A stretch of DNA of 64,000 bases from Geosiphon pyriformis uo1 (lineage: Eukaryota; Fungi; Glomeromycota), in assembly GCA_016748015.1 (NCBI GenBank), contig JAAOMT010000168.1, positions 43,991-107,990 of the forward strand, in the 5' to 3' direction. This document shows, piece after piece, positions 2,551 to 63,548 of this stretch. A program made the position numbers and the translations under genes. Position 1 is the first letter of the stretch. Each line of letters begins with the position of its first letter. Under the pieces are notes generated by a model, which saw only the letters and a program-made list of their open reading frames with translations, was not told the DNA's origin and searched no databases.

Positions 2551-3010
2551 TGTTACACTCCCTAATTTATCAAAAGAGGAACTTAAATAGTTTAGTGAAA
2601 ATAATGAAAGCATTATGCCCAAAAGAGCACATGAAACAGATGCTAAATTTGTCTCAGATATTCAAAACAAGTTTTCATAATTTTAAAACTTTGCTTGCTT
2701 GCCAACATAGATTTAAAATTAATATTAAAAATTCCAACAACAACCATGATTTAATTAGCATTTAGATCTAACTTAACAAGAAAAAAGATTACCACAAAAG
2801 GAGGAATAATTAAGACCGGATACATAAGAAATATCATTATTATATTACAGAATGATTTAAACAGAACCTATAAAATAGAACCAATAAAAAAGATAACACA
2901 AATCATATTCTAACCTTTGATTAAAATAGCTAAATTAGTATCAATAAAAATGAGAAAAGAATTAGAAATAATTGTTAAAGGAATTAATAAATTCAAATTA
3001 ATTAGAAAAG
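2551..3010 (+). pseudogene. Retrotransposon-borne dUTPase domain (degenerate)
   Basis: Translation IMPKRAHETDAKF (motif I), LAFRSNL (II), GGIIKTGYIRNI (III), KITQIIF (IV), VKGINKFKLIR (V; restores to RG..GFGSTG by reversing G>A/C>T changes). Confidence 0.8.
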
Positions 3011-6000
3011 TTGTTATACTTATTAACATAATAGAAAAAACTACTAAAAAAAGAAAAATTATATCCACTAGTTATGCTGTTTCTATTCTATTATATTGTA
3101 AATACTTGTTAGAAATACCACAAAAAATCAAGAATCAGTCACAAATATTTAAAGCAAAACCAGAAGTATGTTAAAAAAACTAGAATTATTACCAATTTAT
3201 ATTTGTTAACTAAAAACCACAAAAATTTTAGAATTCTAATTATTAACAACACAAAAAATTATGTAGAAATTCCAGTCAATACAATAATTAGATATTTAAA
3301 TTCAAAGATAGAAAACCAATTATGTAAATATATAGACTTTACATCATAAATTTGAACCCATAAAAATAAATGCTATTTGCTTTAACCAAAACAATTAAAA
3401 CAGGATAAACTTGAAAAATTTAGATTAACTACAAAAAATGCAGCTTTAAATACTATTCAAACAATATACTAATATTTTTACAATTAAAAATAAGTGTGAA
3501 AAAATTGACATAATTCAATACAAAATCAAAATAGAAAATAAATACAATACTAATTAAACAAAAAACATATAAAATACTAGCAATTAGTCATAATATTATC
3601 AAAAAAAAGATAAATTAAATAGTAAATAGCAGATTAATTTAATTGTTTATGAATTCATAATTATTATTAGTAGTAATAATTCAAAAAAAAATAGCAAAAT
3701 CTAATTTTGTATAAAGTATTATAAGTTTAATAATACTACTTATAGTAATAGTTATTTAACATTATAAATTAAAAAGTTTTTAACTTATTTAATAAAAAAA
3801 ATAGTTTTTTATATTTAATTAAACAATAACTATTGGCAAATAGTTATGAATTTAAATAACAAAAAAAAATAGTGTATATAATAAAAAAAAATTTTGAATT
3901 TATAGTAATACTATTTAGCTTGACAAATACATCTACTATATTTTAATAATTAATAAAAATAATTTATTTTAACATATTATAAAAATCAGTAACTGTTTAT
4001 TTAGATAACATAAATGTTTTTTTAAAAATATTTAATAAACATTTTCATTATTTACAATAAATATTTAAAAGATTAAAATATATTAAATTAAAATTAAATG
4101 TTAATAAATGTTTTTTAAAAAAACAGAACTCAATTCTTAAAACATATAATTAAAAAAAAAACATAAAAACTAATTAAGATAAAATTGAAAAAGTTAGAAA
4201 CTTTTAAAATCCAAAAACTTGATTAAACTTAAAAACTTTAACAATTATTGCTTTATTAACTTCAAGCCAAAAATACTAAATATAAATAAATAAATATACA
4301 ATAACAAATTTTTAAAACACTAAAATAAAAGTTTATACAAGTTTTAATTCTAATATATTTAAATTATAGTAAAAAATTTATAATTGTTACAGATTAAAAG
4401 TTAAATATTTATATTAAACATAAAAAACTAATATTAATAACTTATTATAAATAAAACAGTCACAAGAATAAAACAATAATAAAACAACAAAATAAACAAT
4501 AAAAACTATTAATAATTATTATATTATATAATTACTAAATATTTTAAAAAAAACTATCTTAAAATAAACAAAATAAAATATATTAGCAAATTAAACATTA
4601 TATTAACTACTAAAATATATTTTATTAAAGAAATTAATAAAATATAAATAGTTTATTAAAAGTAATAAAAGAGCAAAAAAAAATTGTTTTATTTAACATG
4701 TATTTGATTCAACAATAAAACATTTTAATTAAAAAACAATATTAAAAAAAACCAAAAAAATATATTACTAATTAATAATATATTCAAATATAAAATAATA
4801 TATAAAAAACTGCAATATTTGCCAAAAAAAAAAGAATAAAACCAAATAAACTATTAAAACCAATTAAAATTAAATAACTATTTAATTTAGATTAGAATTG
4901 ACTTAATTGAATTAAAATAATAATAATAAAGACAATAAATATATTACTGTTATCATAAACTATTTTACCAAATGGCCAGAAGTTAAAACTATTCAAAAAG
5001 CTAATACAAAATTAATAATTAAATTTATTTATTAAAATTTAATATATTAACATAAATATTTAAAAAAACTATTATTAAATCAAAAAACTCACTTTATAAA
5101 CAGAATATTAACAAAATTAAGCCAAAATTTTAAAGTAAAAAAATTATTATTATTGTTATATTATTTATAAACAAATAATTTAATTAAAAAATTCAATAAA
5201 ATATTATATAAAGTATTAGTTAAAATTAATTAAAAAAATAAAATTTATTCTTATTATTAATTTTATTGATTTATTAAATAAAACAAGATATTATTTAAAT
5301 AATACTATTTAAATTAATATATAATAAAACAACAATATTATTATTAAAAAGAAAAAGAAAAATATATTTAATAAAACCAATAACAAAAAATATATTTTAA
5401 GAAATATTGTTGAGATAAATATATAACTTAATAGAAACTTTAAAAAAGAAAAACAAAAATAGTTATTCATATTAAAAAATTATAAAAATTATAAAAAAAA
5501 GACATTATTTAAATTTATAATTGAAAACAAAGTATTATTATATTATACAAAAATAGAAAAACAATAAAATAAAAAATTTAATCCAAAATAAGATAGACTA
5601 TTCTATATTAAAAAAATACTTAAAAATAAAATCTATAAATTATAATTAGAAAACTAAATCTTAATTAAAATATATAGTAATTGATTAAAGCTATATTATA
5701 ACAAACTATTAATATTACTTAGTAAACTATAATTAAAAATACAAAAAATACTAGTTAAATTCAAATAATATTTTATAAGATTTAGACCATTTATTATTAT
5801 TAAGATTAACATATTATAAAATTAAATATTTATTATATAAATACAATTAGAATATAATAAAACAAAATAATAAAATAAAAATTACAAATAACATCTACTT
5901 AATAACTTAACAACTGTTTTAATTATTAAAAACCAAAAACTTAAACATAAAATAATAATCAATAGTCAAAATATTTATTATAAAAACACTTAAAAAATTA

Positions 6001-6351
6001 GAAAAATTTTATATAATAAATAAAACAAATAAATAAATAATTATGTAAAAAAAATTATTAAAAAAGTAAAAAAAACTTTTAAAAATCTAATAACATTTAT
6101 TTAACCAAAAAAACTTAAAAAAAGTAACTTAATAATTTACTTAAAAACTATTTATTAATTATATATAATTTTTATAAATATAATAAAATACTATTACATT
6201 TAACTATAAAAACTTAGTTAAAAAAAATGATTAGCTCATAATTCAAAAACTAAAGACTAAATTTTTCAAAATTATAACGAAAAAAAAGTACTTGAACTTA
6301 TCTAAAAAAACTTAAAAGATCTTGTTAAAGCTTAATATTAAAAAAAAATAT

Positions 6352-7095
6352 TTTTATTTATATAAAAAACCAGAAAAAAAAATAAAAAATAAAATAATCA
6401 ATAATAGAATAAACAATTATTAAAACATATAATATTAAAAATTCTAAAAATATTAACAAAAACATTAAAGATTTCAGAAATGCCAAAAATTTATATATAT
6501 ATATAACAAAAGAATTAAAAACCAAAAAAATAGACATTTTAAAATTAAACAAACTTATTTTAAAATCAGTTTAATCTTTATTATCACTTTAATCAAATTA
6601 TAACTAATTTAAAAAACTTATTTATAAACTTCGATTTATTATGTTAAAATCCAAATACTTTTTATATTTGATACTATTAATATCCAATTTATTAACTTAA
6701 TACTATAAAAACAATAGTTTTTGATTATAACTATTAATAAGATACTAATTTTTATTTTAATTATTTTTTTCTTTTTATTGTTTTTTTTATTTACTAATTA
6801 ATTAAAAAAAAGTATTAATATTATAATATTAAAAATTATTTAATAAAAAATGCCAAAAAAACTATAGATATAGTTATAAAAACTAGAATTACTTATTAAA
6901 AAAATACAAATACCAGAATAAATTAGTTACTAAATAAAAAAAACTAATATTAATTATTAATTATATTTATATTAAATTTTTGTTTATTATACAAAAAATT
7001 CTAACTCAAAATCTTAAAAGTACAATAGTTATCTAATTAAGTACCAAGTTATAGAATTATCTATTAATAATTAATTAAAAAATCTATTTATAATA
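6352..7095 (+). repeat. 3' LTR of G1 (family A)
   Basis: Follows the PPT. Shares blocks with the other family A LTRs (TACTAATTAATTAAAAAA; TGTTTATTATACAAAAAA; CACCAAGTTAT) and ends TATAATA (decayed TGTAACA). Confidence 0.7.
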
Positions 7096-7276
7096 CTACA
7101 TAAAATTAAAATTATAATATATAATATATTATAAATACTACATTTTTTTGTTATTAATACTATAAGTTATAATAAATTTATAAATTTTTTTTATTGATTT
7201 TTATTATTAGAAAGATTTAAAATACTTTGTTAATTAAAAAAAATCTAAATAATAAATTTAAGATTGTAAAAAAATT

Positions 7277-9590
7277 AGAAATAAATAAAATAATGGACAT
7301 AAACTCTTTGTTTCCTTAATTTTATGACCATGACCAGAGCTAAGGGTAAAAAGGCTGCACCTGATATCTGTCCTAAGATATCTAATAAAATTTCAACCAG
7401 AGGAGCTCTTTCTGTTGTAGAAGCAATTAGGCAAAACGTTTTAGAAGCCTTCTTCTTACCCAGTAATCGTGAAAAGCTGCCTTTGGTAGCCACTGTATCA
7501 ACTTCCCCATCTTTGGCTGGTTTTTCACCAGTCAAAGTTCTTTCAAAGAGACATATTTGGGTTAGTCCCAGTGTTGCCTCCATCCCGACTAAGAGCCCAA
7601 AAGTTTTTAATAATAGACCAGTAAATAAGCTGGTCTTCCTCTTTATAGACTTAACACCTGGTGCTTCTGGCACCACCTCTTCAAAAAAAATGGTCAAAAA
7701 AACCAAAAGTTCAGAAAAGTAGGGGCAGTCACTTGCCTCTGCTATTGTCACACCGAATCCCTTTGTGGTTCCCAATGAGATCCTAGATGAGATCTCAGTA
7801 GCATCATCTGGCACGTTATCTAAGATGGGCCAAGATCAACCACTGGCTGTGTTACCAAATGTGGTGTTTTTCGGCAGATCATTGCCGGTTTTAGAAGCAA
7901 AACAATCTCCTCCTGTTGGATCACCTGTTTTTGAGAACTGGGCTGATCAAATGGAAACTGATTTATCTCCTTCTCTAGTTTTTAGTGCTACTTTTGGTGG
8001 TGCTTGGGAAACTATTACTAGTCATCAAAGGTTTGCTGGGTGGGTGGCCTCCACTCTGGTGCCTGGTGCTACTTTCAAGACCAAATTGGCTTATGTTAAG
8101 ACTGTTTTTCAGTCTGTACATGGTTTCTTGAGTGCCAAATCTGTTTCAAAAGACAATGTGAAGCTTTTCTGTATGGAGTTTGCTTCTCAACAGTCTTTGG
8201 AAGCTGTGTTTCTGGTTAAGCTTACAGGCTCTGTTCATTTGGCCACTCTTAAAATTGCCAAGTCTTTGGTGGTTTCTGAATTTGGTTCTTCTTCTGCTGC
8301 TGTTGTGCTGCGTAATATGCCTTTGGGTGTGTCTGCTGCTGACATTAAGTTGGCTCTCAGTGTGTTTGGTAGTGTCGCCCATGTTGTACTGAAGCCTGCT
8401 GGCATTTGGCAGTATGTGGTGGTTTATTTTGAAAAGTTAAACTCTGTTGTGTCTGCCTTGAAGCATTGGTCAGTCTTGGTGGGCAAGGATAGTGTTAGAA
8501 TCCTCCCTTTGGTAAATCAAAATAAGACTATTTTGTCTCGTGATAAGTTTAAGGCCAAATTGGTCAATCTTCCCCCTGGTTGTACTGTCTTTGAAATCAG
8601 TGATATGATTTCTCAAATTGGTGGTCGTACATGTTTCATCCCTCGTTCTCCTAATTCTGGTCATTGTTCCCAGTTCGCTTTGGTTACATTTGACTCTCAA
8701 GATGATTTGAATTCTGCTGTAGTCAAGACTGGTACTCTAAGGAAATGCCGTATCTGGTGGAAAACTCCTGGCTGCCAACGCTGCTTTAGGTGTCAAGAAA
8801 TGGGTCATCTGGTTATAGATTGCAAGATTTCCCCACCCCCCACTTCCAAGGTTCCCAAGGTTTTCAAGTCTTGTTTTGTGAGTTCTACTTTATATGCCAA
8901 AACTGCTGCTCCTTCTGGTCTTTCTGAGTTTCCTCCTTTGGTGGCTTCTTTGGCTGCTTCTGTTGTTGATCCTGCTGTTGGTTCTAGATTGAACTCTTTG
9001 GAAAAGCAGATTTCGGATTTGGCTGCTCTGGTTAAGTCTATTGTTGAGCCTGTTGGTTCTTTGATTACTTTAGTGTCTCATTTTCTTGATGATAATGCTG
9101 CTAAGGCTGTTCAGGTTGAGAAAGATCTCATTACTATGAAGAGTGCTGCTAACAATTTTTTTAATCTCTTGGTTGAGATCTTCAAGGACATTGCTTGTCT
9201 TAGATTTGAGGTTGACTTTGGTGATATGAATTATGATGGTATGCTGGCTGCTAAGCCTTCCTTTTTAAGTGAGGACACTATTGAACATGTTATTGCTTTG
9301 TGGTGTATGTCTGGTGCTAAAACCAGAGGCAATATTGAGTCTACTAGATTGTTTCTTAGTGAGTTTATTTTTGACTCTAGGAATCTGAATGGTATCATTG
9401 AGAGAATTTGTGGGTTGGGATTATTTCCACCTACTTTTGATTCAGCGTAGTGAGTCCTTGATTGAGCCGAGTGTCTGATCACATGTAGAAAACACATGAT
9501 TTATGCCTATAATGTAATCTCTTCTGTGGTATCATAGTTTAGGTGGTATTTGGATCTCGTTTATTAAAAATAAAAAAAATAAAAAAAAAA
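7277..9590 (+). mobile_element. ORF1-only non-autonomous LINE-type element (HAL1-like)
   Basis: One ORF1 frame followed directly by a ~115-nt 3' UTR homologous to the UTR after ORF2 in the full LINEs, then poly(A) 9566-9590. Probable TSD AAAAAAATT (7268-7276, 9584-9592). The host L0 ORF1 reads through across the insertion. Confidence 0.85.
7324..9450 (+). CDS. LINE ORF1-type nucleic-acid-binding protein, ~708 codons, one internal TAG (7720-7722, likely from TGG)
   Basis: ORFs 7324-7722 and 7765-9450 are in the same frame. RRM-like VVLRNMPLGVSAADIKLALSVFGSV and AKLVNLPPGCTVFEISDMI, CCHC knuckle CFRCQEMGHLVIDC, coiled-coil-like RLNSLEKQISDLAALVKSIV. Confidence 0.85.
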
Positions 9591-12329: not shown

Positions 12330-15300
12330 TGTTACTTATAGAAATTAAAAATTATAATAATAAGTAAAATAGCTAATCAGAAATAGACATATTAAAAAAA
12401 AATTTTAAGATTTTTTTTGAAAAATTGCAGAATTTCAGAATTCCAGGATTTCTTTTAAAAAATTTTATATAACATAAATTATATATATATAATGAGAGTT
12501 TTAGAAACAGAAAAAGTATTTAACAGAGATAAAACAGTAGTTAGTAATAATTACTTATCCTATACTTTTCTCTTTAAAAGATAGTTTTTTATAACTTAAA
12601 GCAGAATTATATTAATATTAATAAAATATCTAATTATCATTTAATTTATATTATTATTACTTGATTAAAAATATTAATCACTTTCATACTATTAATATTT
12701 TATATTAATAGAACCTAAGACTTAATTATATTGGACTAATAGTTCTTAATCATGGCTATTGACAGGATATTAATTTTTTATTTTCTTTTTTTCTTTTTTT
12801 TCTTTTTTTTTGTTTTGTTTTTTTGTTGTTTACTAATTAATTAAAGAAATTAAAAACTGAATATTTGATGTTAAAATAGCCTAATAAAAAACTTAAGAAC
12901 AAAAATAGAATTTAAAAATAGCTTACCAAAAGAGCATAATTGTCAGAATAAACTGGTTACTATGCTAAAAAAAAATTCATGAAAAAAACCATCAATTAAA
13001 TCTTTTTTTATTATATAAAGAATTCAACCAAAACCTTTAGATTCTAAAATCTTTAAAAATTACCAACATTTCTAGTTATTAAGCACTAAGTTATAGATTT
13101 ATTATTTGTTTTAATATTTCAATTAATTATCTGTAATATTTAATGCTTTTTGTAAAGTATAATCTAACAAAAAACTAGCATCAACATTAACTATTCAGAA
13201 AAATAGCAAACTAAGAAATTATAAGAAAAAATTATTTAGAATTCACGAAATTTTTATTTCAATATTATTAAATTTACTTTGAATTAACAAATAACTATTG
13301 GTCAACAGAATCAGCTTTTAATTTTTATGTTAATGAAAAAATTAAATTCTACTTAAAAAACCAAGAAAATCCAGAAGCTGTCCTTAGAAATTTCTACAAT
13401 GAACTATTACAAAACACTACACTTCTACCAAATTATCTGTTTACACCACTAATCAAATAAATAAACAGAAAAATTAAGAATTACACTTAACAAAAATTTT
13501 CTATTATCTTTACAGACAAAAAAAAATTACAAACTTTAGCAGAAACATCAAAGAAAATACAACTACCTACTTGAAAGAAACCAAAAGTTATTTTACTTAT
13601 TTATCTGTTATATTATCATATACATATTATCAAAATCTATATCACTATTAATTGGAAAAACATTATTATTTAGAATACTTTTCCAAAATAATTAAGAGAA
13701 AGCCAAATTATTAAAAATCTATGGCAATTTTTTTGAAAAATTTAAATTGTAACCAACAACACCATTAGAACTTTAATTACTGCTATTTTAACCAAATTTC
13801 GAATCTACTAATTATTGAAAAAATACTGAATCAGAAGAAAAAAAGACAATAATTAGAGAAATAATAATCAAAATCTGATTTTAATTAATCCAGAAATTAT
13901 AATTTTGATTGTTCAAATCCAGCCAAATCTAAACAATCCAAATTTTACTTCTATTCTTCAGCAAAACTTTATTTCTAATTATTATGATCAATTCACTAGT
14001 TGTACCAATTGTTCATAAAAACAACAATTTATATTAATAATATATGTACCCATTACCAAACTAAAAAAATTTACCAACAAAAAAAACAATGTCCAAATAT
14101 AACTAAACAATATAAAAAAAATCATTACAGATAACAGATGAGATAATACCAGAGTCTTTTAAACTATTTTTTATTTCTTCCAAAATACTGCCAATTTGTA
14201 GTATTAAAATTTTGTAAACAAATTTCAAGATTTTAATATGTTTAAAACTGCATTTCTATAATACTTTAGCAATAATAATAGTATTAATTATCTGTTAATT
14301 AGTTTTATTACAATTATATAAGATGATTCTAAAGTAGTCACTACTTATTTAGAATGCTTTCACAGGAATTTACACCAAATCCAAGCAATTAACATTGACT
14401 ACTTTATAGTATTACAGATTCTAAATCAATTTATTCATAGATTATGCAGTAATTTATTATAACAAGAACACTTAATATATCTAAATACTTTCCAAAATGC
14501 AGTAATACATGTCAGAGATTTTAAATTAGCTGAACTTGAAGCCAATCATGCTCAAACTATTAACTTAGTAATAAACAGATCATTTGAATTAGATTTTAAG
14601 CTAAAACAATTTAGTGATTTTATCAACCAGAAAATCGAGAAATACTTAGCTAATAATTAAGCAATCTATCAGTTTTTTCAATATTACAACAATCAAAAAA
14701 ACTCTAATTGCTTTCAAAATCCATCACATTTATTATTATTATTATTAAATCAACTATGACAATAAAAAATACATAATTATTACCATTATAATAAACAAAA
14801 CCATCTAAAAGCAGATTGTTACTCTAAATTTAATAACCAATAATTAGAAAATCAATATTAAAATCCTAATCACAAATTTCAAATTCAGAATTATGCCAAC
14901 AATTTGTTATTAGAATTATATTTATATTAGCTATATTATTTTTAAATAATACAACAACTAATATATTTATCTCTAGTATATCAAATTCTAGCACCAATAA
15001 TATATTAGCCACTGCCACAAATCATTTATTAAATCCAACCAATTTAAACACTACCACAAAATCTAACTCAAATAACAACCAAAAACCAAAGACTAAAAAT
15101 CACATATATAACAAAACTAAAGATTAACAATGATTATGCACTAACTAATCTTTAGTTTCTTAAACCAGTCATTAGAATCATGTCAATAAAGTTTAAAAAA
15201 TAGGTACATCCAAAACCCGAATTTTTAGAACTATTTAAGCCTTTTGGTTATTTCAAAAAACAATTTATTTAACAACTTAAAAACTTACTACCAACTTACC

Positions 15301-17163
15301 AACAACATTCTACTAATAACTGTTATAGAAGACAAATTACTATTTATTATTTTCCTATTCAAATTAAAAATCCAATCAGAAATACTGTTATTTAGTAAAG
15401 CTATTTTTAACTCCAAACTAATTACTATTATCTATATTAATGTTAAAGTTAATAACTACTTTATCAGACTAATCTTTAATAGTAAGTCAACAGACAGTAT
15501 TATCATATAATAACTCATAAACCAATTAAATTACCAAGTTGATTATATTGCCAGTGCCAAAATTATTATAGTTGATAAAACAATCAAGATTTTTATTGGC
15601 AAAATTAACAACTTTTCTTTTAAAGTCAATAGTATTATTATGTCTATCAAAGTTTTAGTTATGGAAGTTACACAATATTAAGTTTTTATTGGTAATAACT
15701 GGCTGTTCAAAATTAATGTCATGCTTAATTGGAACACTCAGAAATTACAACTTGGTCAAAAAGATTAGCATATTTGGGCACTAGCTACTTACAGTCACTT
15801 TAAAACAAACACTACCACCTAATTATTATTAATTGAGTTTAAAAAAAGAAAAGCCTATTTAAGAAGTTTATTAAGTTTTATAGGCTGACAATGATTATAA
15901 TGAACTACCACTAATTTTATTCTAAAATGACAAAAAAAAAAGAAAAAAAAAGAACAAATCACAAAGTACTACCTTCACAAAAAAAAAATAATGGTTAACA
16001 TATTTTATACTTATTATAATGATTGTGATTTTATTTATAATCTATTATCATACATAATCTATTCAAATCTTAAAGAGAAAAAACCAATTAGTGAATATGC
16101 CCCAGAATTAGAATTAAAAATCAATTACAATTTAGACTCTAACTATGATAACAACAATAGTTTCAATACTGTTTACAATAAAAACAACAACAATGATCAT
16201 TTAAACTTTGACAAAAACCCCAAACAATATATTGTGTTCCCAAATTTCTTACAAGAGCAAAAACTCAAATGATTTAGCAATAATAATAAGAGTATTATGT
16301 TAGAATACAAATACAGAGTTTAATCTTAGATATTTTAAAAAAACTACTATTAGATTGAAATTTCACTTATATATTAGTATAAATTTAGAAGATTTAAAAG
16401 ATTTCGACAAAGCTTAATATTAAAAAAAAAATTATAATAATAAATAAAATAACCAATCAAAAATAGATATAGTAAAAGAAAAAATTCCAGAATTTCTCTT
16501 AAAAAATTGCAGAATTTCAGAATTTCAGAATTTTTTTTAAGGAATTATAAGATTTCAAAAAATTTTGTATAATATAAATTATATATATATAGTAAAAATA
16601 TTAGAAGCAGAAGAAGTATTCAACAGAAATAAAACAATAGTTAACAATAACTACTTATCCTATACTTCTTTTTTCAAAAGATAGTTTTTTATAACTTAAA
16701 CAGAATTATATTAATATTAATAAAATATCTAATTACTATTCAATCTATATTATTATCACTTAATTAAAAATATTAATTACTTTTATACTATTAACATTCT
16801 ATGTTAATAAAATCTAATACTTAATCATATTTAACTAATAGCTTTTAATTATGGCTATTAATAGAATACTAATTTTTTATTTTTATTATTTATTTTTATT
16901 ATTTTTTTTTGTTTTATTTTTTTGTTGTTTACTAATTGATTAAAAAAATTAAGCACTAAATATTTAACATTAAGAATAGTTTGGTAAAAAACTTGAAAAC
17001 AAGAGTAGAAAATTAAAGATAGCTTATTAAAGAATACAAATGTTAAAATAAACTGATTATCATACTAAAAAAAAAAGTCATAAAAGAAATCATCAATTAA
17101 ATTTCTGTTTATTATACAAAAAACTTAATCAAAACTTTCAAACTCCAAAATTTTCAGAAATTA
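12330..17163 (+). mobile_element. Gypsy family A non-autonomous copy G2: LTR-gag-protease-partial dUTPase-LTR, no RT/RH/INT
   Basis: 5' LTR 12330 (TGTTAC) to 13138 (TGTAATA), decayed PBS. Gag aligns with 58080-59700; CCHC relic ~14780-14820; protease relic LIFNSKSTDSII ~15470. dUTPase N-terminus 16226-16390 is joined to the PPT region. 3' LTR ~16425-17163 has lost its last ~80 bp. Confidence 0.85.
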
Positions 17164-17224
17164 TAAATGTATTAAAATAGCTTTTTAAAAAAGTTGTTTT
17201 GAATTATTGGTTAACAATAATAAA

Positions 17225-17754
17225 CTAATTTTAGAATTTATTAAAATTAAAAACAGAATAAATTTAATTATAAAAAGTTAAACCAAAAAATAGATTGTTA
17301 AAAATATAATTTTTTTAATGATAAAGCTATTTGCTTTTTTGGATTATATTAATAACTAAAATTATAAAATAAATTTATCTTAATAAGTTTTTATTGGTTG
17401 TAAAAAGTTTTTTTAAAAAAAAAGCTGCAGATTTTTTAAAAATTACCAATAAAATATGAAAACATTATAGCAAATTTGNNNNNNNNNNNNNNNNNNNNCT
17501 AATTTTAGAATTTATTAAAATTAAAAACAGAATAAATTTAATTATAAAAAGTTAAACCAAAAAATAGATTGTTAAAAATATAATTTTTTTCAATGATAAA
17601 GCTAGTTTGCTTTTTTGGATTATATTAATAACTAAAATTATAAAATAAATTTATCTTAATAAGTTTTTATTGGTTGTAAAAAGTTTTTTTAAAAAAAAAG
17701 CTGCAGATTTTTTAAAAATTACCAATAAAATATGAAAACATTATAGCAAATTTG
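17225..17754. other. 20-N scaffold gap with a ~254-bp sequence duplicated on both sides (assembly artefact)
   Basis: 17225-17478 is repeated almost identically at 17499-17754 across the N run 17479-17498. Confidence 0.9.
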
Positions 17755-20146
17755 GTTTGGTTTGGTTTTTAAATTTTTAATGCTTAGAAAAACACATAAG
17801 TTTTTATGATCTTAAAACTATATAAATAAAAAAACATTTTAATAAACACTAAATTAATTGTTTTAATTGAAACTACAAAAAATATTTTGTTAAAAATTTT
17901 ATTTGAATAGATTTTACAGCTTGTTAAAAATTTTCTATTTTTAAAAAAATAATAATTTTAGTGTTAAAAAGCATATTAATTTAGATTTTTGTATTTGTAA
18001 TTAGTTTTATTGTTAAAAATATATTAAAAAATAGAGTTAATTTTTTAGGATATATATAAAGCTTATAAATTTGTAAACTAATTACATTTAAAAAATAGTT
18101 TAAAAAAAATTAAAATATGTAACAGATTTATTAAATTTTTTGGGCATATTTACAATATTTATACAAATAAAATTATAATAAATTTTAGATTAATAATAAA
18201 TTATAATTAAAATTAAATTAAAATATTTTTGCTCTTTTTGGAAATTTTTTATAACTTTTTTTGGTGTAAAATAAAAATATAAAACACTTTATAAGTATTA
18301 AGTAGATTCTAAATTTGTTATAAAAACTAATAGGATTAAATTTAATATAAAATTAATGTTTTATTTAGCTATTAGTGTTTTATTAATAATACAACTTAAA
18401 TTGATAACTATTATATGACTATACAAAAAATTTTAAATATAATTAATAAATTTTTTAATGTTATAAACATTTCAATTAACATAAATAAAATAATAACTTT
18501 TTTAATTAATTTAAGAATTAAAAAAGTTTTTTTATATATAGATAAAATTTTTATTATAATTATGAAATTTGATAAAGCTTATTAATATTTAGATATTTTT
18601 TTATTAACAAAAAATCTTTTTATTTTTAGTTTAAAAAAAACTAATACAAACATAAAGTTTTTTTCTATAATATTTTATAAAGTTATTTTTAATAAATAGT
18701 TTTTTTATTTGGTTTTGGCTATATTACAACCTATTATTAATTACAAAATTCGGTTTAGTTTTGTCAATAAAAACATGTATAAAAATAAAATTATTTAATT
18801 AGAAAGATATTAAAATATAAATCTAATTTGTTTAAAAACTTTCTAAGTAAAACTGTTTACATCTTTTATTATATAACCTAAAACTATTTAATTAAGTTTA
18901 AACCAAAAATAAAATTGTTTTAATTATATGTTTTACTAATACTAAAAGCATTTTTAATCAATTTTTTAAACATAAATTATTGGATTTGTAAATATTTAAT
19001 TAAGTCTTTTAAAATTTTTCACAATTTTTAGTTAAATTTAAAATTAACTTTACGAACAATTTTTTCGACAATAAGATTTTTTTGGCTATTAATATGCTTA
19101 ATAGCTTTTACTTTAAACAAAATATTTTAGTATTATTTTTGTTAATAAATTATTAAACAGTTATAAACAGTGTTTTAATTAAAAATTTTTTGCTATTAAA
19201 ATACATAAATTTAAAAAACTTGATTTATTTGTATTTTGAATTTTATTATAAATAATAAATTGGTTAATACTACTATTTATTTTTTTGATGTTAATTTAAG
19301 TATAAGTATTAAAATCTATGATTTATTGTTTTTAACTTTAACTAAAATATAAAATATTGTTTTGGTATTTAAATGTGTTTTATTGTTATTTAATATCATA
19401 GTTTTTTCAAATAATTAAGAATTTTTAAATTTTTATAACTAAATTATTATTAAATATTTTTAATTTTTAAAATTGTTTTTAAATTAAATGTTATCATGTT
19501 AAAAACTTGGTTAATTTAAAAATATTTCTGTAAAATAAGTTAAAATTAAAGATTATTTTTGTATTTTATATAATAAATAAACTAATGTATTAATAGATTA
19601 AATTATGTTATTAAGACTTGTTTTTTCAATAAATATTAATAAAATATTCTTAATAGCAGTTAATTAGATAGTTTTTGGTAATACATATTATTTTATTAAA
19701 TTAGTAAATAATACAGTTAAGTACTTTTTATAAGAAACTGAATTAGGTTTAAAGATATTAATTTTTTTATTTATTGATAATATTAGTTAGTATTTTACTA
19801 TTTTAATTTAATATATTAATTTTTATATGACTGCTAAAACCATAAATAAATCTATTATTAATTTATAAATTTATATAATAAAAACTTTATACAAAAAATA
19901 ACCAATAGTTATTTAAAAATAATTATATAATAATAAATATTTAAGTATATTATATATATATTATAAGAAAATAGAGTTTTTAAATTATGTTTTTATTAAT
20001 AACTTGAATTTGTTTATTTATCAAAAATTGTTAAATAAATAATTTTTTTTTAGAAATTTTTAATTAGTATAAAATTAATAATATTATTAATATTTTAATT
20101 ATTAATTTTAAGTTACTTTGATATTGGTTTGTATATTATTTTGTGT

Positions 20147-21078
20147 TTGTAATATTTTTCATTCTATTTGTTATGTATATTAGAAGATTGGTTTTGGTTC
20201 TAAGTTTTTGGCAAATAGTTTGCTTTTAAATGTTGATTGGCTCAGCTCCTCATTGGTTTGGCAACTTAATTTGCACATAACTACTGGTTTTATTAGCAGA
20301 CTTTCAGCTAATGTGCACACTTATTTCATAAAGACTTTATATTATTGGTTGTTTATTGCTATCTGAAAGCATGTTTATAACAAACTTTATCCTAGTGTTT
20401 TATGTTTATATTGTGATAGTGTAGAAGTGTCTGATTATGTATTTTCTTGTAAAATTGATGACTCTGCTTATTGTTAGATATTAGATGTCCATATAGCTTC
20501 CTAAAAAGTGCTTTCTGGTTTCTCTTCTTTTTTATTATGTGTATTACAGCTTTTGTTATTTTGTGTTTTTGATGTTTCTGTTTTTACAGCTCTTTATAAG
20601 GATTTTGTTTTTGATAGATGGCTTTAGAAGACTATTTCTGTTTTTCATAATTTTAAAATTGCTAGTTTAAGAATTATAAAATTTGTGTATTCTTTTTATC
20701 TTACTTTTAAGAATAATATTTAATTGGTTTATGCTAAATATTATGTCTATATAGAAAAGTATAGATTATTTCTACTTAATAGTTCAGCTTTTGTCTCAGT
20801 TTCTGGTTTGGCTTCAGAGTTTTTGGCTAGTGTAGTCAAGTTGTTTGGCATTGCTGAAGCATTTGGCATTAGTTTTGGTTTTCATAAGTCCTGTTTATTT
20901 TTTTCTGGCATTAGTAACTCTGTTTTAATTTATATAGATGCATAGTATTGTTCTGATTAGCTTAAATAGCTGGTTGCATGTAAAGAGTACATGTTTCACA
21001 TCTAGTTTAAATTATTTTTTTGATGTATAGTTCTAGACAGTGTTTGGATCTCACTTATTAAATAATAATAATAATAAA
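20147..21078 (+). mobile_element. 5'-truncated LINE C (~930 bp of ORF2 3' end, 3' UTR, (AAT)n tail)
   Basis: ORF 20724-20945 is homologous to the ORF2 C-termini of copies D and E. 12-bp TSD ATTATTTTGTGT at 20135-20146 and 21079-21090. Confidence 0.85.
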
Positions 21079-47610: not shown

Positions 47611-50600
47611 CTAGTGCTAATGTAATAAACCCTTGTATTCTCCTAATAATGAATGTAAATTCTGTCTAATCTATTATAAAGATTGGGAACCTATTAGTCT
47701 AATACTCAAAGAAGAACTAAAAAAATACAAAAGTTCTTTGAAAATAAACCACCTGAGATCTAATCACTTGCAATAAAATATAAAAAACTTTTCTTTAAAG
47801 AAAAAAAAATAGACATTAAAAATCTGTTGGTTAGAAATAGCCCAGTTATTTAAAAAAAAAAGGATACCTCTAAATAAACTCATATATTATAATATATCAT
47901 TACTATCAAAAAAACTTACTCCATTTATTTGAAGCCTTATCAATCTAATTAATACAATAATGAGTTTATTAAAAAAGAGATAAACTGAATAAAAAATCTT
48001 GGATTTATACAAAAAACCAAAAGTAAATGGACTTTCTTAGTTATAGTAGTATCCAAAAAAGACAGAACTCTATACTTCTGTGTTGATTATTACCAATTAA
48101 ATGCTATTATTATAAGAGACATATACTTACTTCCCAAAATTGATGTAATGCTAAACAAATTCAATAGTACTGCTTTTTTTTTAATCATTAACTTAACTGC
48201 TGAATTCTGGCAAGTAGAAATAGATCCAGAAAACAAAAAAATAACTGTCTTTATTACCAAATATGGCATTTATGAATTTACAGTTATGCTTTTTGGTTTT
48301 ACTAATACTTTTTTTATTTTTTAATGTCTAATAAACAAAGTGTTTAAATTAATAAAAGAAAACTTTGTTTTAATTTATTTAAATGATATAATAATATACT
48401 CAAAAACCTGAAATAAACTTCTTAAACACTTGCAAAAGATTTTTGATCTTCTTAAAAATACTGGTTTTAAGATAAACCTAATTAAATTTTTTTTTGAATA
48501 ACAATTTTCCCAGTTTTTTGGTTATCTTATTACAAAAGATAGAATCTTTCCTGATCCAGCTAAAGTTGAAAAAGTCTAAAACATTAAACAATCAATAAAT
48601 ATTCCTAAACTATGCTTTTTCTTTGGTTTGGCTTTTACTATTACAAATTTATTAAAAATTTCTCTAAAATTGTCTTTCCTTTCAATTACTATTCAGAAAA
48701 AATATTAATTATTACTGGAGCATTTATCAACAAAAAGCTTTTGAAACTCTAAAAAAAAAACTTATTACTATACTAATATATCTGGTTATAGATTTGGTAC
48801 TGTTTTTTCACAAAAAAATAAAAATAACAGAGAACATATTATAGCATATGTCAGTAGAACGCTCACATCAACAGAAAAAAACTATTCAATTACTAAACAA
48901 AAATGCTTAGCAGTAGTTTGGGCTACTAGTTATTAGAATTAATATCTTTTTGGTGTAAAATTCTTAGTGATAACAGATTATTAAGCTTTGGTTTAGCTAT
49001 ATAACAAAAAAAAACTAGAACATAAATAGATAACTTGCTAAATACTTTACTTAAATAAATTCAACTATAATATACAATACTGCAAAGGAGCAAATTATCA
49101 AAACACCAATGTTTTTTCCAGACTTACTATCCAGTGATAGTACAATCTTTCAACCAAATCATTTTAATTATTAGTATTTTTTTCTTTAACAAACATGATA
49201 ATAGACTTAGATAACTACTCTGCCTTAATAAAATTTTTAGATAAAAGACAATATCTATTAGACTACACTTAATAACAAAAAGAACATTTATACAAACAAT
49301 CAAATTTTTATTTGATTTGCCAAAACCAATTATATAAAAAAAATTAAAAAATTCTAACCACTTTTAGAGAATCATAAGATTTGAGGAAAAAGAAATTGTA
49401 ATATACAACATACATACTAATCTATTAGCTAAACACTTTGAAAAAACTAAAACAATTCAAAAAACTTTAACTTGCTATTATTGGCCTACTTTGGAAAAAG
49501 ACATTGCTGAGTACATCAAAACTTGTAATACTTGCCAAAGAAAAGGAAAACCTAATTGTCAAAAAGATATTCATCTAATCTCTGTTGGTCAATTATTTAA
49601 CAAAATTAACATAAATGTTATTGGACTCTTAATAATAACTTTTGATGACAATAAATATATTATTACAGCTACTGATTATCTTACAAAGTGAGTAGAAGCA
49701 AGAGTCACTCCAGATCAAACAGCAATCTTAATAGCTAATTTCATTTATAAAGATATTATTTATTACTATAGCTATTTCAAAAAACTTTTATCTGATAGAA
49801 AAAGAGCTTCTCTCAGTATACTAGTTAAAAAACTTTGTAGAAAAATGAGAATATGTTATAAACTTTCTTCCTTTTATCACTCTCAGACAAATAACCTAGT
49901 GAAATATTTCAATAGAACACTATGTAAAATCTTAACCAAAACCAGTAAAAAAACAAACTTATAAGACAAAGTACTGTCTTTAGCTTTGTTTGTTTATAAA
50001 ACTGTGAATCATGACATAACAAGTTATGAACTTTTTTATCTATTCTATAAATACATAAAAACACTACTAATAGAAACTGATATTGAAACAATACTTTTTA
50101 AAGAAATCACAATAGGAAATTACAAAGATATTTTGCAAAGAAGATTTGGTATTATTCTTAACTCCTTGGTAGAAACACAAATAATTGTCTTTGAAAAAAT
50201 AAACCAGTTCTAAGAAAAGCTTAAAAAAAAAAAAATCTATAAAACACTTTTTTTAAGTATTAGTAACTTAGTTTTAAAATATTGCTTAGACAGAAACAAT
50301 ATCTATGGTAATAAATTCTCTAACCAGTAAAAAAAACACTTTTTAGTTAACAATGTTTTGAACAATAGTTCTTATATCTTACAAAATTAATATAAAACAA
50401 TCTTTAATAATTATCTTGTTCATGATACATAACTCAAAAAATATTACTAACGATCTGATTAGTTATCTGTTGTAGTAATACTAACCCAAATGATTAGCAA
50501 AAATTAGATATAAATAAATACACCATTTTCAAAACAGAAATATTTTCAATTAACATGAACAATCATTTTTTGGATTAAAATATTCAAAATGGCTTCTATA

Positions 50601-55085: not shown

Positions 55086-55092
55086 ATAAAAT

Positions 55093-55539: not shown

Positions 55540-57146
55540 TTATTAAGCTAAACTAACTAACAATAGTAATATTATTTCTTTAATTTGCAAAGCCCAAATG
55601 GCTGGTTATTTTATTAATTTGATTCTGAACAAAAAATCTGGACATAACCAAAACTGTTTTTGTTTACATTAATAATATTAGCATTAAAACTAACATAAAA
55701 ATTCTTGAAGCAAAAGAGTAAACCATAATTGTTGACAATAAATGGCTTAAAAAAGCCAAAGTTTTACTTAATTATAAGCTGTGTGAATAAATCATTAAAT
55801 ATTATAAGAAGTTTATTGTGCTTAAATGTTATTATTAGACAATTTTCTAATATTTAAACAGAACCAAGAAGAAAAACAATCTGATAAATCAGATGATAAA
55901 GAGAGCAATAAAAAAGAAAAACCAAAAAAACAAGAAGAAACTGCTAAACTTGTTTACACTATCTTTACCAACAATAGCAAATCACTAGATAATATTAAAG
56001 CTAACAAAAAAAAATTATTGTAAATGACAAGCTGATTTGTTGGCTCTATTATAATATTCTTAAAAAAACCTTTGATAAAAAGCTTAACAAAAAAGCCAAA
56101 TACAGTTATTGGTAACATAGTTCTTATGCTTGATATTAGTGCAATAAACTATTGTATTCTCTCAGTGATAAATAAATGTTTTGTCTAATCTATTACAAAG
56201 ATTAGAAACCAATTATATTAATATCTTGAGAAAAAATAAAAAAAATACAGAAGTTCTTTAAAAATAAATTACCAAAGATATAATTAATAATAGTAATACA
56301 AAAAAAACTCTTTTCAGAAGAAAGAAAAATTGACATTGAAAATTTGCTGGCTAAAAATAATTCAATTATCTTAAAAAAAAAGATATTTTTGGATAGATTT
56401 ATGTAATACAATACACTATTACTATCAGAGAAACTTACTTCATCTATTTAAAGCCTTATTAATTTAATTTTTATAATAATAAACTCATCAAAAAAAAATA
56501 AACTGGATAAAAAATCTTAAATTTATACAAAAAAATAAGAACAAATAAGCATTTCTAATTGTAGTAATATTCAAAAAAAGTAAAACTTTATACTTTAGTA
56601 TTAACTACTAATTAAATATTATAACTAAAAAAACATATATTCACTTCTCAAAATTGATACAATATTAAATCAATTTAATAGTGCTGTTTTCTTTTCAATT
56701 ATTAATTTAACTACTGAATTTTGGCAAGTAAAGATAGATCCAAAAAGCAGAAAAAAAACTGTCTTTATTATTAAATATGATACCTATAAATTTACAGTTA
56801 TGTTTTTTGGTCTTATTAATACTTCTCTCATTTTTCAATGTCTAATAGACAAAGTATTTGAATCAGTAAAAAAAACTTTGTTCTGGTCTATTTAAACAAC
56901 ATAATAGTATACTCAAAAATTTTGAATAAATAACTTGAATATTTATTAAAGATTTTTGATTTCCTTAAAAATACTGGTCTTAAAATCAATTCAATCAAAT
57001 CTTTTTTAAATATTAATTTATTTAATTTCTTAGATATTTTATTACAAAAAATAGAATTTTCCTTGACTCAGCCAAGATTGAAAAGATTTAAAACATTAAA
57101 CAATTAATAAACATTTATAAACTACAATTTTTCTTTGGTTTAACAT
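55540..57146 (+). mobile_element. Gypsy family B internal fragment G6 (protease relic to RT), paralog of 47611-48640
   Basis: 56150-57146 aligns by eye with 47630-48635 (e.g. ACTACTGAATTTTGGCAAGTAAAGATAGATCC). Cut at 57147 by the G7 LTR. Confidence 0.8.
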
Positions 57147-57960: not shown

Positions 57961-60900
57961 ATATAATTCTACAGAGAATTAGCACCAACAACAACTATTC
58001 AAAAGTGATAGAATCAGAAAAAAGAAAAACAAATTATTTAGAATTTGCCAAATTCTTATTTTAATATTACTGTCAACATTTGGAATCAATGAACAACCAA
58101 CTATTAGCAGAATTAGTCTTCAATTTTTATATTAATAAAAAAATTAAATATTTTCTGAGAGAACCAATAAATACTATATCAGCAAGAAAAAATTTTTACA
58201 ACAAATTAATTCAATATACCAGCTTATTATTAAATCACAACTTCGTTTTAATCATTACTGAAATCAACAGAGAAATTGAAAATTACACTCAACAAACATT
58301 TTTTATTACTTATACAGAAAAAGACAAAAGAAAATTACAAACACCAGCAAGAATTTCAAAGCAAATACAATTATCTACTTGGAAGAAACAGAGAGTTGAT
58401 TTACCAGCTAATTCATTATATCATTATACACCTGAAAGTACCATCAATATAATATTAATAGGTGCATTTACAGCAAACACAATAACACTATTAAACAGAA
58501 TTTTGTTTTAAAGTAAACAGAAGAAAGCAGAGTTATTAGGAACTTAAAGCAATTATTTTGAGAAATTTAAATTATGATCCCAAATGCCATCAGAATTTTA
58601 ATCACTGTTATCTCAACCAAATTTTGGAATTGTTAGTCCTTAGAAGGTAATAGAATCAGAAGAAAAAAAAGACGAAAATCAAGAATTTAATTATTAAAAA
58701 CCAATTCCAGAAAACTCAGAAATACAAACTCCAATTATTCCAACTCAGCAAAATTAGAACAATTAAAACCCTGTTTTTAGTATTCTTCAAAACTTATCTC
58801 TAGTAATTATAATTAATCTATCATCAGTTGTCCCAATTACTAAACAACATTAACAGTCACAACAACTACTTTAACCACAATCACAATAACAACCAATAAT
58901 AGCACCAATAGCATATATACCAATTGCCAAATTAGAAAAGTTTACCAGTAAAGAGAATGATACTCAAGTCTGACTAAATAATATCACTAAAGCCATCATG
59001 ACTAATAATTAGGACAACACCAGAGCCCTTTAAGCAATCTTATATTTTTTACAAGATATTGCTGACTTATAATATCAAAGCCTGACACAAAAACTCCAAA
59101 ATTTCAATACTTTTAAAGTTGAATTTTCAAGGTATTTTAGTAATAATAATAGCATTAATTAATTGGTAAATATCTTAACCAGCATTAAACAAGAAGAAAC
59201 TGAAGCTGTTAATACATACTTATAACACTTTCATTGCAATCTGTGCCAAATTCAAGCCATTGATGCCAATTATTTTACAATGACACAAATCTTAAATCAG
59301 TTTATTTGTGGATTATACAGTATTCTACAATGTGTATGTTTATTACATTTAGCTGATCTTTAAGCTGCAGTTACCTACACCAGAGACTTTGAATCAGCTG
59401 AACTAGAAGCCAATCATGTCTAAGCTGTAAACTTAGTAATAAACAAATCATCTAACTTGGACTCAAATTGAAACAATTCAGTAACTCAATTAATTAAAAA
59501 TTGGAAGAATACATAGCTAATAATTAAGCCATTTATCAATCTTTACAATGGCATAATAATTAAAAAAACTTTAATTGATTCCAAAATCAGTCATGTCTAT
59601 CCTTATCAAATTAACAATAGCAGCAAAAAATGTGTATTTGCCACTACTGCTGTAAGTAAAAACACTTAAAAATAAACTGTCAATTAAGATTAAATAATCA
59701 ATAATCAAGAAATCAACATCAAAATCCCAATTACTGGTTTCAAACTCTGAATTATTCTCTAAATCAAGATCAATATCAACCTTATTATCCACAAATAACA
59801 TTACAACCAATATACACATCTTTAATCTATTAAATTCCAGTTTTAATAATTTATAATCTGCAGCCACAAGTAATCTATCAACTCCAATTCATCTCAACAC
59901 TACCACAAAACTTAGCTTAAATGTTATCTGAAAACCAAAGGCTAAGAATCACACATACAGCAAAACTGGATATTAGTAATAGTAATACACCAACTGATCT
60001 CCAGTTCATCAAGTCAGACATTAGAATTCTGCCAGCAGAGTTTGGATATTGGGTACAATCAAAACCCAAATTTCCAGAACTATTTAAGTCTCTTGGTTAT
60101 TTCAGATAATACTCAATTCAACAAACCAGAAACAAAAACAAACATTTACCAACAATATTTCACTTGTAACTATTACTAAAAATAAATTTCTTGCCACAAT
60201 ATTCCTAAAATAGATACTTCATTAAAAACACTATTATTCAGTAGAGCCACCTTAAATACCAAACCTATTATCACCATGTATACTAATACTAAAGTCAATA
60301 GTTAACCCATCAAACTGATTCTTAATAGTGGATCAACAGGCAGCATTATTACATAATAATTTATAAACCAATTAGGTTGCTGAGTTGATTGTACTACCAA
60401 CATCAGAATTATTACTGCTAATAGAATAACAAAAATGCCCATTGATAAGATCAATGACTTTCTTTTTAAAGTCAACAGCATTATCATATTCATAAAAGTT
60501 CTTGTTATAGAAACCACACAGTACTAAGCATTAGTTGGTAATGACTAACTGTTCAAAACCAATGCCATTCTTAACTGAATCACACAAGAATTTCAGCTTA
60601 GTCAAAATGGTCAGCAAATTCAGATATTTGCCATTTGCAGCCATTTTAAAACAAATGCCACTTAACTGCTACCACTAATCAAATTCGAAAAAAAAAAAAA
60701 AAAACCTACCTGGAAAGCCTACCAAATTTCATGAACTAAAGATGACCATAATGAGCTATCATTACTTTTAAACTGGAATGACAAAAGAAAAAGAAAAAAA
60801 GAAGACAAACCCAAAGAAACTACTGCCACAAAAAAAATAATCAGTGGATAAAAAAAATCATACTTAGTAGATACAAAAAAAAACCATTATATATTCTACT

Positions 60901-61803
60901 CAAATATAAAAACTGCAAAAAAAAACTGTTTTCCATAGAAGCATAGATTACACCTAACAAAAACTACTAAACATACACACACTACTACTATAAGTCATAT
61001 TACAGAAAATGCTATAGTTACCTCAAATAGCAAGACAAGTAAAACAATAAATTATGTTTCACTTGTGAAGAACAATTATTCAACAAAAAAATATGGAATA
61101 ACATTTCTGGTTGAGGAGAATGTGTGACATTTTATGTCAATACATGGTCTTTATAAGTGATTTGGTCAGCAGAAAAACATCTTTCAATGCTACATGAAAC
61201 TATGTTTTGTTATGCTTAAACTGTTATTCACATAATAAAAATAAGATCTAAAGTATAACAAGTGCCAAAGTCAAAGGTGTTTTGTCCAGCAAAATTTAAA
61301 AATTAAAAATAACTCACTAAAACCAGTAGAAATTTTTCTTATTTTCAATTTCAACACTTTTTTTAATATTGAAGCCAGTTCAGAAAAATTCTATAAACAT
61401 TACCAGAATTTAGTATTAACCAGACAAAAACAAGAGCAGTATTTAAAACAACTAAACACCCAACTATGTAACTACTGTTTAATACCATGTGACTTTTAGT
61501 ATTGTAATAATTGTGACATTATTTACAATCCATCACCATGTATAATCTATTCAATTTCAGAAAAGAAAGAACCAATTAGTAAATACACAAAAAAATCGGA
61601 ATTGAAATTCAATCTTAATTCAGACTCTAATGATAACAACAATAATAGTTCTAACTCTGTTCACTATAACAGTAACAACAGTAATTTAAACTCCAATTAT
61701 AACTTCAAACAATATATTGCACTCCCAAATCTGTTGATAAAACAGGCAATTAAAGCAGCCAACTTTTTTTTAGACTGCAATTGCTTTAATGATTTTAAAT
61801 CAT

Positions 61804-63548
61804 TGTTATCAATAGAATTTTAGCTATTAACTAGCATAAAATTACTCTTATAATTCCTATTATTAATTAGCATATATTAATACTATTTCAAATTATTACT
61901 TATTAATTAATTAAATTATCAAATAGCACTATTTAATTATTAACCTAATTTGTATTATAGAAATTAAGATGATTAAATTACACAATACTCTGAACTACTT
62001 AACATTTAAAAATTCATTGAAATTTGTAAAAATTTGTTAAAATCATAAATAATTAACCAAAATAGTTAATAGTTTAACAAAATAACTTGTAGTTTGCCAA
62101 AATATATCTTTAGTTTATTGAAATCATAGTAAAGAAGAAAATTCAAGTTTATAAACAAGTACTATAACAAGTTGTATAAAAAAAAAGCTTTTTTTTTCAA
62201 AAAATGTATCTTATTTTCTATTAAATATTTTAATTAGAATCAATAATTCTTTATATATTTTTACAAATTAAAAATAAAAATCAAATATTCAAAAATCCAA
62301 ATCTTTAATTATTATATTTAGAACTGCTAAAACCCAATTAACAATTTGAAATTGATTAGCTACCAATTTCAATAAATTTGTTAATAACTCTAGATCTGAA
62401 TACAAAACGTTTTTTTTGACAAAATTCTATTTTTTTTACATTTTTTATTATAATTATTAGAATAGTCTACAAATGAGATTTCTGTAAAAGAGTTAACTTT
62501 CACAGCAAAGTAATTATACAGTTTTGGTAAGTTTCCAGATAAGTAATTTTTGGGAAAGAGTTGATGTTTATTACAACATAACTATACAAAGTAATTGGCA
62601 TGAAATTGGCCATTTCACTTTTACTAAAGGTTTTTGGTCTCATTTCTTGAAGGTTATTAATGCCTAATTGCTGTAATTTCACGTTTTTTTGAAGTACTTG
62701 AACCTTCAATAACTGAATTTATCTTTTTAAATTATCTTTTATAATTTGAACTGCTGGACTTATAAGTAGAATGGCCAATTTTATGTTAGTTACTTTATGT
62801 AGTTACATTGTTATAAATATCAACTCTTTTCCAGAAATTGCTCATCTAGAAGTTCACTAAATGTGTAGTTACTTTGCTGTAAAAATCAACTTTTTTACAG
62901 AAATCTTGTCTGTAGACAACTCTAATGATTATGATAAAAAAAATTAAAAAATTAAAAAAAATTAAAAAAAATTAAAATTTTGTCAAGGGAAATGTTTTCT
63001 ATCTAGGCCTGAAGTTATTAACAAATTTATTAAAATTGGTAAATAACAATTTCAAGTATAATAATTTAAAAATTTAAGATTTTTGAATATTTGATTTTTA
63101 TTTAATTTTGTAAAAGTATTTAAGAAATAATTGATTCTAATTAAAATATTTACGATAAAATAAATACATTTTCTTGAAAAAAGAAGCTCTTTTTTATACA
63201 ACTTGTTATAGTACTAGTCTTTGAACTTGCATTTTTTTTTTTACTATAATTTCAGCAAACTAAAGATACATTTCAGTGAATTACAAATTATTTCTACAAA
63301 TTATTGATTATTTCAGCCAATTTCTATCTATTTCGGCGAATTTTTGAATATTAAATAGTTTAAGATATTGTGTAATTTGATCATCTTAATTTTTATAGTA
63401 CAAATCGAATTGTTAATTGAATAATAATATTTAATAATTTGATTAACTAATAAGTGTTAATTGAAATAATAATAATATATACTAATTAATGCTAAGAATT
63501 AAAAGAGTAATTCCATGTTAATTAATAGTTAAAATTCTACTGGTAACA
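61804..63548. mobile_element. Non-coding foldback element with ~800-bp inverted arms
   Basis: 61804-~62623 is the reverse complement of ~62761-63548 (e.g. TGTTATCAATAGAATTTT vs AAAATTCTACTGGTAACA; GAAATTGGCCATT vs AATGGCCAATTT). Spacer ~137 bp. Confidence 0.9.

Follow-up and report, generated by a model that had tools for sequence, protein, structure and literature searches.

Repeat-induced point mutation (RIP), along with RIP-like defenses, is regarded as a trait of the Dikarya: a survey of 1,239 genomes recorded strong RIP signatures, with a CpA preference, in four ascomycete classes only (PMC12543289), and RIP reportedly went undetected in Gigaspora margarita and the Mucoromycotina (10.1101/2021.03.30.436303). 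Here we analyze a 64,000-nt stretch of DNA (hereafter the window; contig JAAOMT010000168.1, positions 43,991 to 107,990), which an earlier note, made from the sequence alone, had assigned to a probable non-Dikarya fungus with RIP-like decay of its repeats. The source does lie outside the Dikarya: it is Geosiphon pyriformis (Glomeromycotina), an early-branching relative of the arbuscular mycorrhizal fungi (AMF). The window is a transposon nest made up of long interspersed nuclear elements (LINEs) coding for endonuclease, reverse transcriptase (RT) and RNase H, together with one foldback element and Gypsy-type pieces that carry a dUTPase, and we find that a C>T/G>A process is restricted to such transposons, while host duplicates largely escape. 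Thus, the part of the "RIP-like" claim that concerns C>T/G>A change beyond CpG and its confinement to repeats stands, but the mechanism that the term implies does not, given that CpA is the lowest context, bursts are absent and close host duplicates escape. Judging from the mutational spectrum, the Geosiphon process likely falls outside classical RIP and works like a methylation-linked mutator.

The described systems each share some of these features. The Dim2-dependent C>T mutator of Zymoseptoria tritici is mitotic and accounts for >95% of mutations (PMC8016269); as in Geosiphon, C>T constitutes nearly all change and is confined to transposons, and Z. tritici needs no sexual cycle for it. However, its experimentally determined target is CA (>98%) with CG spared (PMC8016269), whereas in Geosiphon, a member of a different phylum in which such a mutator is inferred, the order is CpG > CpC > CpT > CpA. 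With the RIP of Neurospora crassa and the Pezizomycotina (PMC7296669, PMC12543289) Geosiphon shares a transition-only decay toward AT-rich DNA, stop codons at former Trp, Gln and Arg codons, few indels and perhaps spill-over into adjacent DNA; unlike it, Geosiphon displays neither a CpA preference nor same-strand clusters, its close host duplicates escape and its younger copies have RIP indices below zero. In basidiomycete transposons, the CpG/TpCpG decay tied to Masc2/DNMT1 (PMC4352252) likewise has CpG as the hottest and nearly vanished context, but ~93% of the discordances between repeat pairs in the Geosiphon window are non-CpG. A RIP-like claim outside the Dikarya has also been published for Zoophthora radicans and its allies (Zoopagomycota), based on a dinucleotide index only (PMC11105155); this index is negative in the younger Geosiphon copies. 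Our literature search, whose coverage excluded two Geosiphon genome papers, found no report of the C>T pattern for Geosiphon or the Glomeromycotina. The sections of PMC11952901 consulted describe Geosiphon transposable elements without mention of "RIP", and the covered parts of PMC12543289 (sections 7-9 and 12 of the 19 supplements) hold no Geosiphon entry.

The direction and size of the process are best seen in a gene with many copies. A 575-residue frame at 7723-9447, with an RRM and a zinc knuckle, is 100% identical to an annotated G. pyriformis protein; from its domains, the product is the LINE open reading frame 1 (ORF1) protein. It has 303 relatives, and all 120 among the matches listed are from G. 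pyriformis. We scored 89 of these 120 proteins, in alignments of at least 70% identity, with the column majority as ancestor and the codons of the window copy as context. C>T and G>A changes were seen at 2145 of 25369 opportunities (8.46%), T>C and A>G at 197 of 29274 (0.67%), and transversions at 80 of 108380 (0.02-0.10% per type), placing the C>T rate near 115 times that of each transversion type. Residue changes independent of CpG are also one-sided: P>S 15.8% versus S>P 0.3%, M>I 11.6% versus 0.06%, H>Y 9.5% versus 0 and S>F 8.7% versus 0.06% for their respective reversals. C>T had struck 363 of 402 sites in some copy, and each transversion type 6-20 of 389-520. At the DNA level, public contigs aligned to ORF1 yielded 263 C>T, 231 G>A, 82 T>C, 74 A>G and 60 transversions, though these contigs derive from one study, are possibly the source of the window itself and are thus not independent. 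By simple arithmetic the measured rates predict an equilibrium GC content of ~8%; the oldest copies in the window stand at 11.8%.

On the sense strand of the ORF1 copies C>T amounts to 9.4% and G>A to 7.8%, so both strands are affected. The per-copy strand ratio is binomial (chi2 70.1, 81 copies), adjacent changes fall on the same strand at a frequency of 0.520, versus 0.524 +/- 0.009 by chance, and none of 300 simulations of same-strand bursts with a mean of at least 1.5 scored sites gave a value as low as that observed. Tandem CC>TT changes number 61, versus 50.4 expected under independence. Hence, there are no strand-coordinated bursts: the changes arrive site by site on both strands. As RIP-type bursts are absent, the pattern should not be read as a sign of cryptic sex. 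APOBEC editing of retroelement cDNA, which would leave sense G>A only, before integration and in retroelements only, was rejected because both strands, long terminal repeat (LTR) pairs and foldback arms are affected.

At 112 non-CpG sites, where the 3′ neighbor is fixed by the codon, C>T reached 695 of 6925 (10%), for which reason plain CpG methylation decay was also discarded. By 3′ neighbor, the rates descend from CpG (0.327, 14 sites) through CpC (0.151) and CpT (0.078) to CpA (0.051). A 5′ C or T is associated with rates of 0.17-0.19 and a 5′ A or G with 0.06-0.09 (p 5e-7), and a G at +2 lowers the rate to 0.038 versus 0.122 otherwise (p 0.005, 10 sites), i.e., CHG is spared. Even C between a 5′ purine and a 3′ A (RCA) shows 4.8% C>T, 65 times a transversion type.

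The earlier note had set its claim against the case that the repeats merely follow the spectrum of the rest of the genome; run on host genes, this comparison yielded two different spectra. The control was the BTB-BACK-TLD family, with about 90 paralogues in G. pyriformis, treated at the protein level by one method for both families, which counts the changes private to a copy relative to its three nearest relatives. The host set, made up of 87 of the 89 paralogues, with a median identity to the nearest relative of 0.87, displayed 144 GC>AT, 88 AT>GC and 157 transversions, whereas 60 of 60 ORF1 proteins of comparable nearest identity (0.85) displayed 975, 82 and 42, and the next 60 displayed 662, 81 and 34 (BTB versus ORF1, Fisher p 3e-78), a 25-fold difference in GC>AT per transversion. 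Eight BTB pairs of 86-96% identity hold 129 transitions and 95 transversions, and eight ORF1 pairs 682 and 32; several of these BTB pairs have neighboring locus numbers, on contigs of equal length, and are apparently linked, yet escape. Among BTB proteins of <440 residues, which possibly include dead copies, GC>AT changes number 72 and transversions 70.

Positions 1-2550 of the window are host DNA that terminates in a frameshifted BTB-BACK-TLD pseudogene. This flank is AT-rich (GC 0.24) and keeps CpG and TpC; below position 2551, 14 transitions, 16 transversions and many indels were counted (30 among the differences listed, 40 of 192). The earlier description of a unique flank holds as to a CpG-retaining host flank but not as to its uniqueness, since ~1200-2550 has paralogues and ends in the pseudogene. 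A 60-residue BTB piece used as query found nothing; two G. pyriformis paralogues emerged from a representative search. In the final 62 nt of the pseudogene, six of seven residue changes, a small sample, are explicable as C>T/G>A, and a short mutational spill-over (~80 nt) from the adjoining element is possible. The pseudogene itself was dropped as an age-matched control, as its junction at 2551 falls within a dUTPase, without an LTR end, and does not reveal the order of events.

The features of the window are the following:

1-2185, no strand: host flank, CpG kept, control; observed/expected (o/e) CpG 0.91 and 0.63 in the first and second kb; public contigs differ by transitions, transversions and indels mixed.
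2186-2550, plus: BTB-BACK-TLD pseudogene, frameshifted, of the host family; tblastn to G. pyriformis paralogues, Pfam of paralogue P0123 and residue comparison; C>T/G>A in the final ~80 nt, with contig differences listed at 2469-2513.
2551-7200 (end approximate), plus: old Gypsy-type fragment that begins within a dUTPase, GC falling from 0.26 to 0.10; translation, composition and self-alignment to RT/integrase copies.
7300-9560 (open frame 7723-9450), plus: young LINE ORF1 copy (RRM and zinc knuckle), reference of the 89-copy analysis; homologues and Pfam.
12342-13062, plus: left LTR of pair G2; 92 transitions and 14 transversions versus 16422-17163.
14015-16016, plus: gag-protease region of G2, related to 58886-60869 (425 transitions, 142 transversions).
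16422-17163, plus: right LTR of pair G2, partner of 12342-13062.
17637-21082, plus: old LINE ORF2 remains, GC ~0.12 in the oldest part; alignment to a younger LINE.
21660-28300 (upper end approximate), minus: younger LINE copy A (endonuclease, RT, RNase H); self-alignment, ORF2 stops and Pfam.
28578-30680, minus: old LINE remains, partner of 18700-21493; self-alignment.
31000-37554 (start approximate), plus: younger LINE copy B; self-alignment and ORF2 stops.
37574-39561, minus: old LINE remains, partner of 17637-18670; self-alignment.
40000-44829 (start approximate), plus: LINE copy C, almost without CpG; composition, self-alignment and ORF2 stops.
44829-45546, plus: left LTR of pair G3; 87 transitions and 7 transversions in 604 columns.
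46912-47608, plus: right LTR of pair G3, partner of 44829-45546.
47618-48629, plus: Gypsy RT region, partner of 56137-57141 (180 transitions, 33 transversions); RVT_1 below the cut-off.
56137-57141, plus: Gypsy RT region; translation and alignment to 47618-48629.
58886-60869, plus: gag-protease region of another Gypsy copy; translation and alignment to 14015-16016.
61810-63548, no strand: foldback element with two ~0.8-kb inverted arms and a ~125-nt spacer; 97 transitions and 24 transversions between the arms.

Across the nest, the youngest copy has a GC of 0.43 and the oldest copies one of 0.10-0.12, and the CpG o/e is 0.15 for the whole window versus 0.91 in the first kb. Most of what the earlier note had read from the letters was borne out by recounting: there are eight CpG in 1-300 (GC 0.227) and none in 30721-31020 (GC 0.35); the altered dUTPase motif V string lies at 2989-3006 in a dUTPase-like frame; and, relative to what we take to be the intact dUTPase, protease and RT motifs, Asp-to-Asn readings occur in the protease (LILNSGS, LIFNSKS) and the RT (YLNDII, YLNNII), on deduced ancestral codons. 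The claim that frames are broken mostly at former W or Q codons with few indels is likewise upheld: three LINE ORF2 copies hold 72 stops in 4314 aligned codons, of which 21 lie opposite a stop; among the remaining 51, W, Q or R is opposite in 35 cases. An all-frame count (124 of 250 facing W, Q or R) was set aside in favor of this ORF2-only count, as it included non-coding frames. A 4960-column LINE alignment has four gap openings against 1883 mismatches, and LTR pair G3 has nine gap runs versus its 87 transitions.

Eight repeat pairs were compared within the window: transitions exceed transversions 2.6- to 12.4-fold, 50-88% of the columns bearing G/C are discordant, and of 1020 scored C/T differences 944 are non-CpG if the ancestral base is assumed to be C. 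Measured per C/G site, the C>T distance exceeds the per-site transversion distance by factors of 71 and 57 in the LTR pairs, 35 in the RT pair and 26 in the foldback. Since paired LTRs and foldback arms differ in this manner, the process acts on chromosomal copies. The old LINE remains at 17783-18996, aligned to the younger LINE at 34421-35668, have A/T against G/C in the latter at 264 sites and the reverse at 38. The context analysis that the earlier note had called for returned non-CpG C>T in these pairs too, with the effects of T at -1 and G at +2 recurring, and CpA and CpT alike under saturation; as unpolarized context counts are saturated, polarized codon-site and pair counts were used instead. 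The excess of ACCAA/TTGGT noticed in the oldest copies is real: 45 occurrences versus 7.2 expected from base composition and 33.7 from an order-2 model, and 86 of the 98 remaining CC are followed by A. Survivors relative to expectation are TCA 0.52, TCC 0.43, CCT 0.24, CCA 2.33 and GCC 3.64; ACCAA/TTGGT is thus a resistant purine-CC-A word. RIP indices, which the earlier note had proposed as a check, went the other way: because CpA is not the target, the composite index lies below zero (about -0.3 to -1.3) in the younger LINEs, being weakly positive in the most AT-rich blocks alone.

We regard as probable a Dim2-like cause, namely transposon-targeted cytosine methylation in all contexts coupled to steady, unrepaired C>T conversion. 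Cytosines in both CpG and non-CpG contexts of transposons would be methylated, with silent chromatin, not DNA homology, picking the targets and a candidate DIM-2/DNMT1-type methyltransferase determining the context. The methylated C would then deaminate during vegetative growth, either spontaneously or by catalysis of the methyltransferase, and go unrepaired; the mutator would accordingly be mitotic in operation, and decay would end near the 8% GC floor set by the measured rates. The steady, strand-symmetric, CpG-topped and transposon-confined C>T change fits such a combination of targeted all-context methylation and unrepaired deamination. In the AMF Rhizophagus irregularis, methylation affects 32.5-49.5% of cytosines, and DNMT1, DNMT2, DNMT5, DIM-2 and RID are said to be retained in the AMF clade (PMC8298701), though RID is restricted to Ascomycota according to PMC13297926 and PMC5751038. 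In Phycomyces, transposons carry methylation in the CG and CHH contexts and lack it at CHG (PMC11258239), which matches the sparing of CHG in Geosiphon.

Several points weigh against this reading. Both the methylation and the methyltransferase are, in Geosiphon, predictions. The Dim2 of Z. tritici, the nearest case studied by experiment, has a different preference, mutating CA (>98%) and sparing CG (PMC8016269). The spectrum derives from one LINE ORF1 family and eight window pairs; its ancestral states are majority calls, with raw counts inflated by shared ancestry, and the scored sites include just 14 CpG and, among those with fixed neighbors, 10 with G at +2. The BTB controls are selected genes represented by annotated proteins alone, from which heavily mutated copies might be missing, and three short BTB paralogues carry 5-7 GC>AT changes with 0-1 transversion. 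Finally, for spontaneous decay of partial methylation the ~115-fold ratio is high, the sites involved being mostly non-CpG. In mammals the corresponding ratios of CpG change to transversions are some tens.

This high ratio leaves room for a dedicated deaminase. More generally, we tentatively entertain, as something less than an even prospect, that Geosiphon possesses an active enzyme-driven defense with a YCCY-leaning, CHG-sparing specificity, in which a methyltransferase or deaminase continuously writes C>T into silenced transposons without sex or pairing. A specific version, an AID/APOBEC-like cytidine deaminase with a 5′-pyrimidine preference that is brought to silenced transposon chromatin and edits single bases of chromosomal DNA, draws on the excess at C or T (0.17-0.19 versus 0.06-0.09) as well as on the ratio itself. 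It appears quite improbable, for C flanked by purines mutates nonetheless, 65 times as often as a transversion type, CpG is hottest, same-strand clusters are absent and C>G is 0.02%. C>G often arises as a by-product of uracil excision. True RIP, with a RID-type enzyme that senses homology premeiotically, would need an unusual context and a very low yield per round, and we deem it unlikely, though a little less so. It would account for transitions only, confined to repeats and affecting LTR elements, LINEs and the foldback alike, as well as for the possible ~80-nt spill-over into the BTB pseudogene; RID is retained in AMF according to PMC8298701, and coding duplicates of Neurospora are likewise rarely mutated (PMC7296669). 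However, the strand bursts are missing, whereas 91.9% of Neurospora clusters are single-stranded (PMC7296669), CpA is the coldest context, RID is limited to Ascomycota in PMC13297926 and PMC5751038, and close, apparently linked BTB duplicates (86-96%) escape, albeit these are selected annotated genes. Dense non-CpG methylation, the second option of the earlier note, would seem to fit better than RIP.

Two further explanations dispense with a targeted enzyme. Repair might be excluded from transposon heterochromatin, such that ordinary deamination, or ultraviolet damage at dipyrimidines in a surface-living fungus, becomes fixed without special methylation; site-independent, strand-symmetric accumulation and the higher rate beside pyrimidines are in its favor. 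We hold it to be very unlikely, in that transversions are very low in the same DNA, while the near-chance level of CC>TT (61 versus 50.4) and the heavy mutation of RCA are not an ultraviolet signature. Least credible is a genome-wide AT-biased mutation with CpG decay, made visible in neutral transposons: it can point to the low GC of the host flank (0.24) and a mild GC>AT excess in BTB (144:88), but is largely refuted by the 25-fold gap between ORF1 and BTB in GC>AT per transversion, the 72:70 ratio in the shorter BTB proteins and a flank that retains CpG and TpC with 14:16 transitions to transversions among the differences listed below 2551.

A C>T process of such size in an early Glomeromycotina lineage amounts to a mutational kill of transposons that is invisible to standard indices and, should the enzyme-driven reading be true, CpA-based surveys would be blind to such a defense. 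The spectrum also yields a predicted methylation context. Moreover, LTR-divergence ages and transposable-element landscapes make copies in G. pyriformis look older than they are by a large factor, with a C>T distance 57-71 times the transversion distance.

The nest has some structural peculiarities. The BTB pseudogene abuts the Gypsy dUTPase fragment without an LTR end (2186-2551), and the element junctions at 2551, 44829 and about 57100 lie inside a dUTPase, RT or LTR and not at element ends, which suggests deletions or recombination within the nest. The segment 17225-17478 is a 99% repeat of 17499-17754 across a 20-N gap, which is likely an artefact of overlap in the assembly. A LINE RT piece scanned against a metagenome collection gave 274 pattern matches and zero relatives, and genome-index searches yielded no more than short matches by chance. 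The LINE-like copy at 7300-9590 consists of ORF1 only, followed by an A-rich tail at ~9565-9590 and no ORF2, and may represent a non-autonomous family of hundreds of copies. Lastly, GC drops stepwise from 0.27 to 0.10 across 2551-6000 with distance from the host flank; either an edge effect in the mutated domain or a base composition native to the element may lie behind this gradient.

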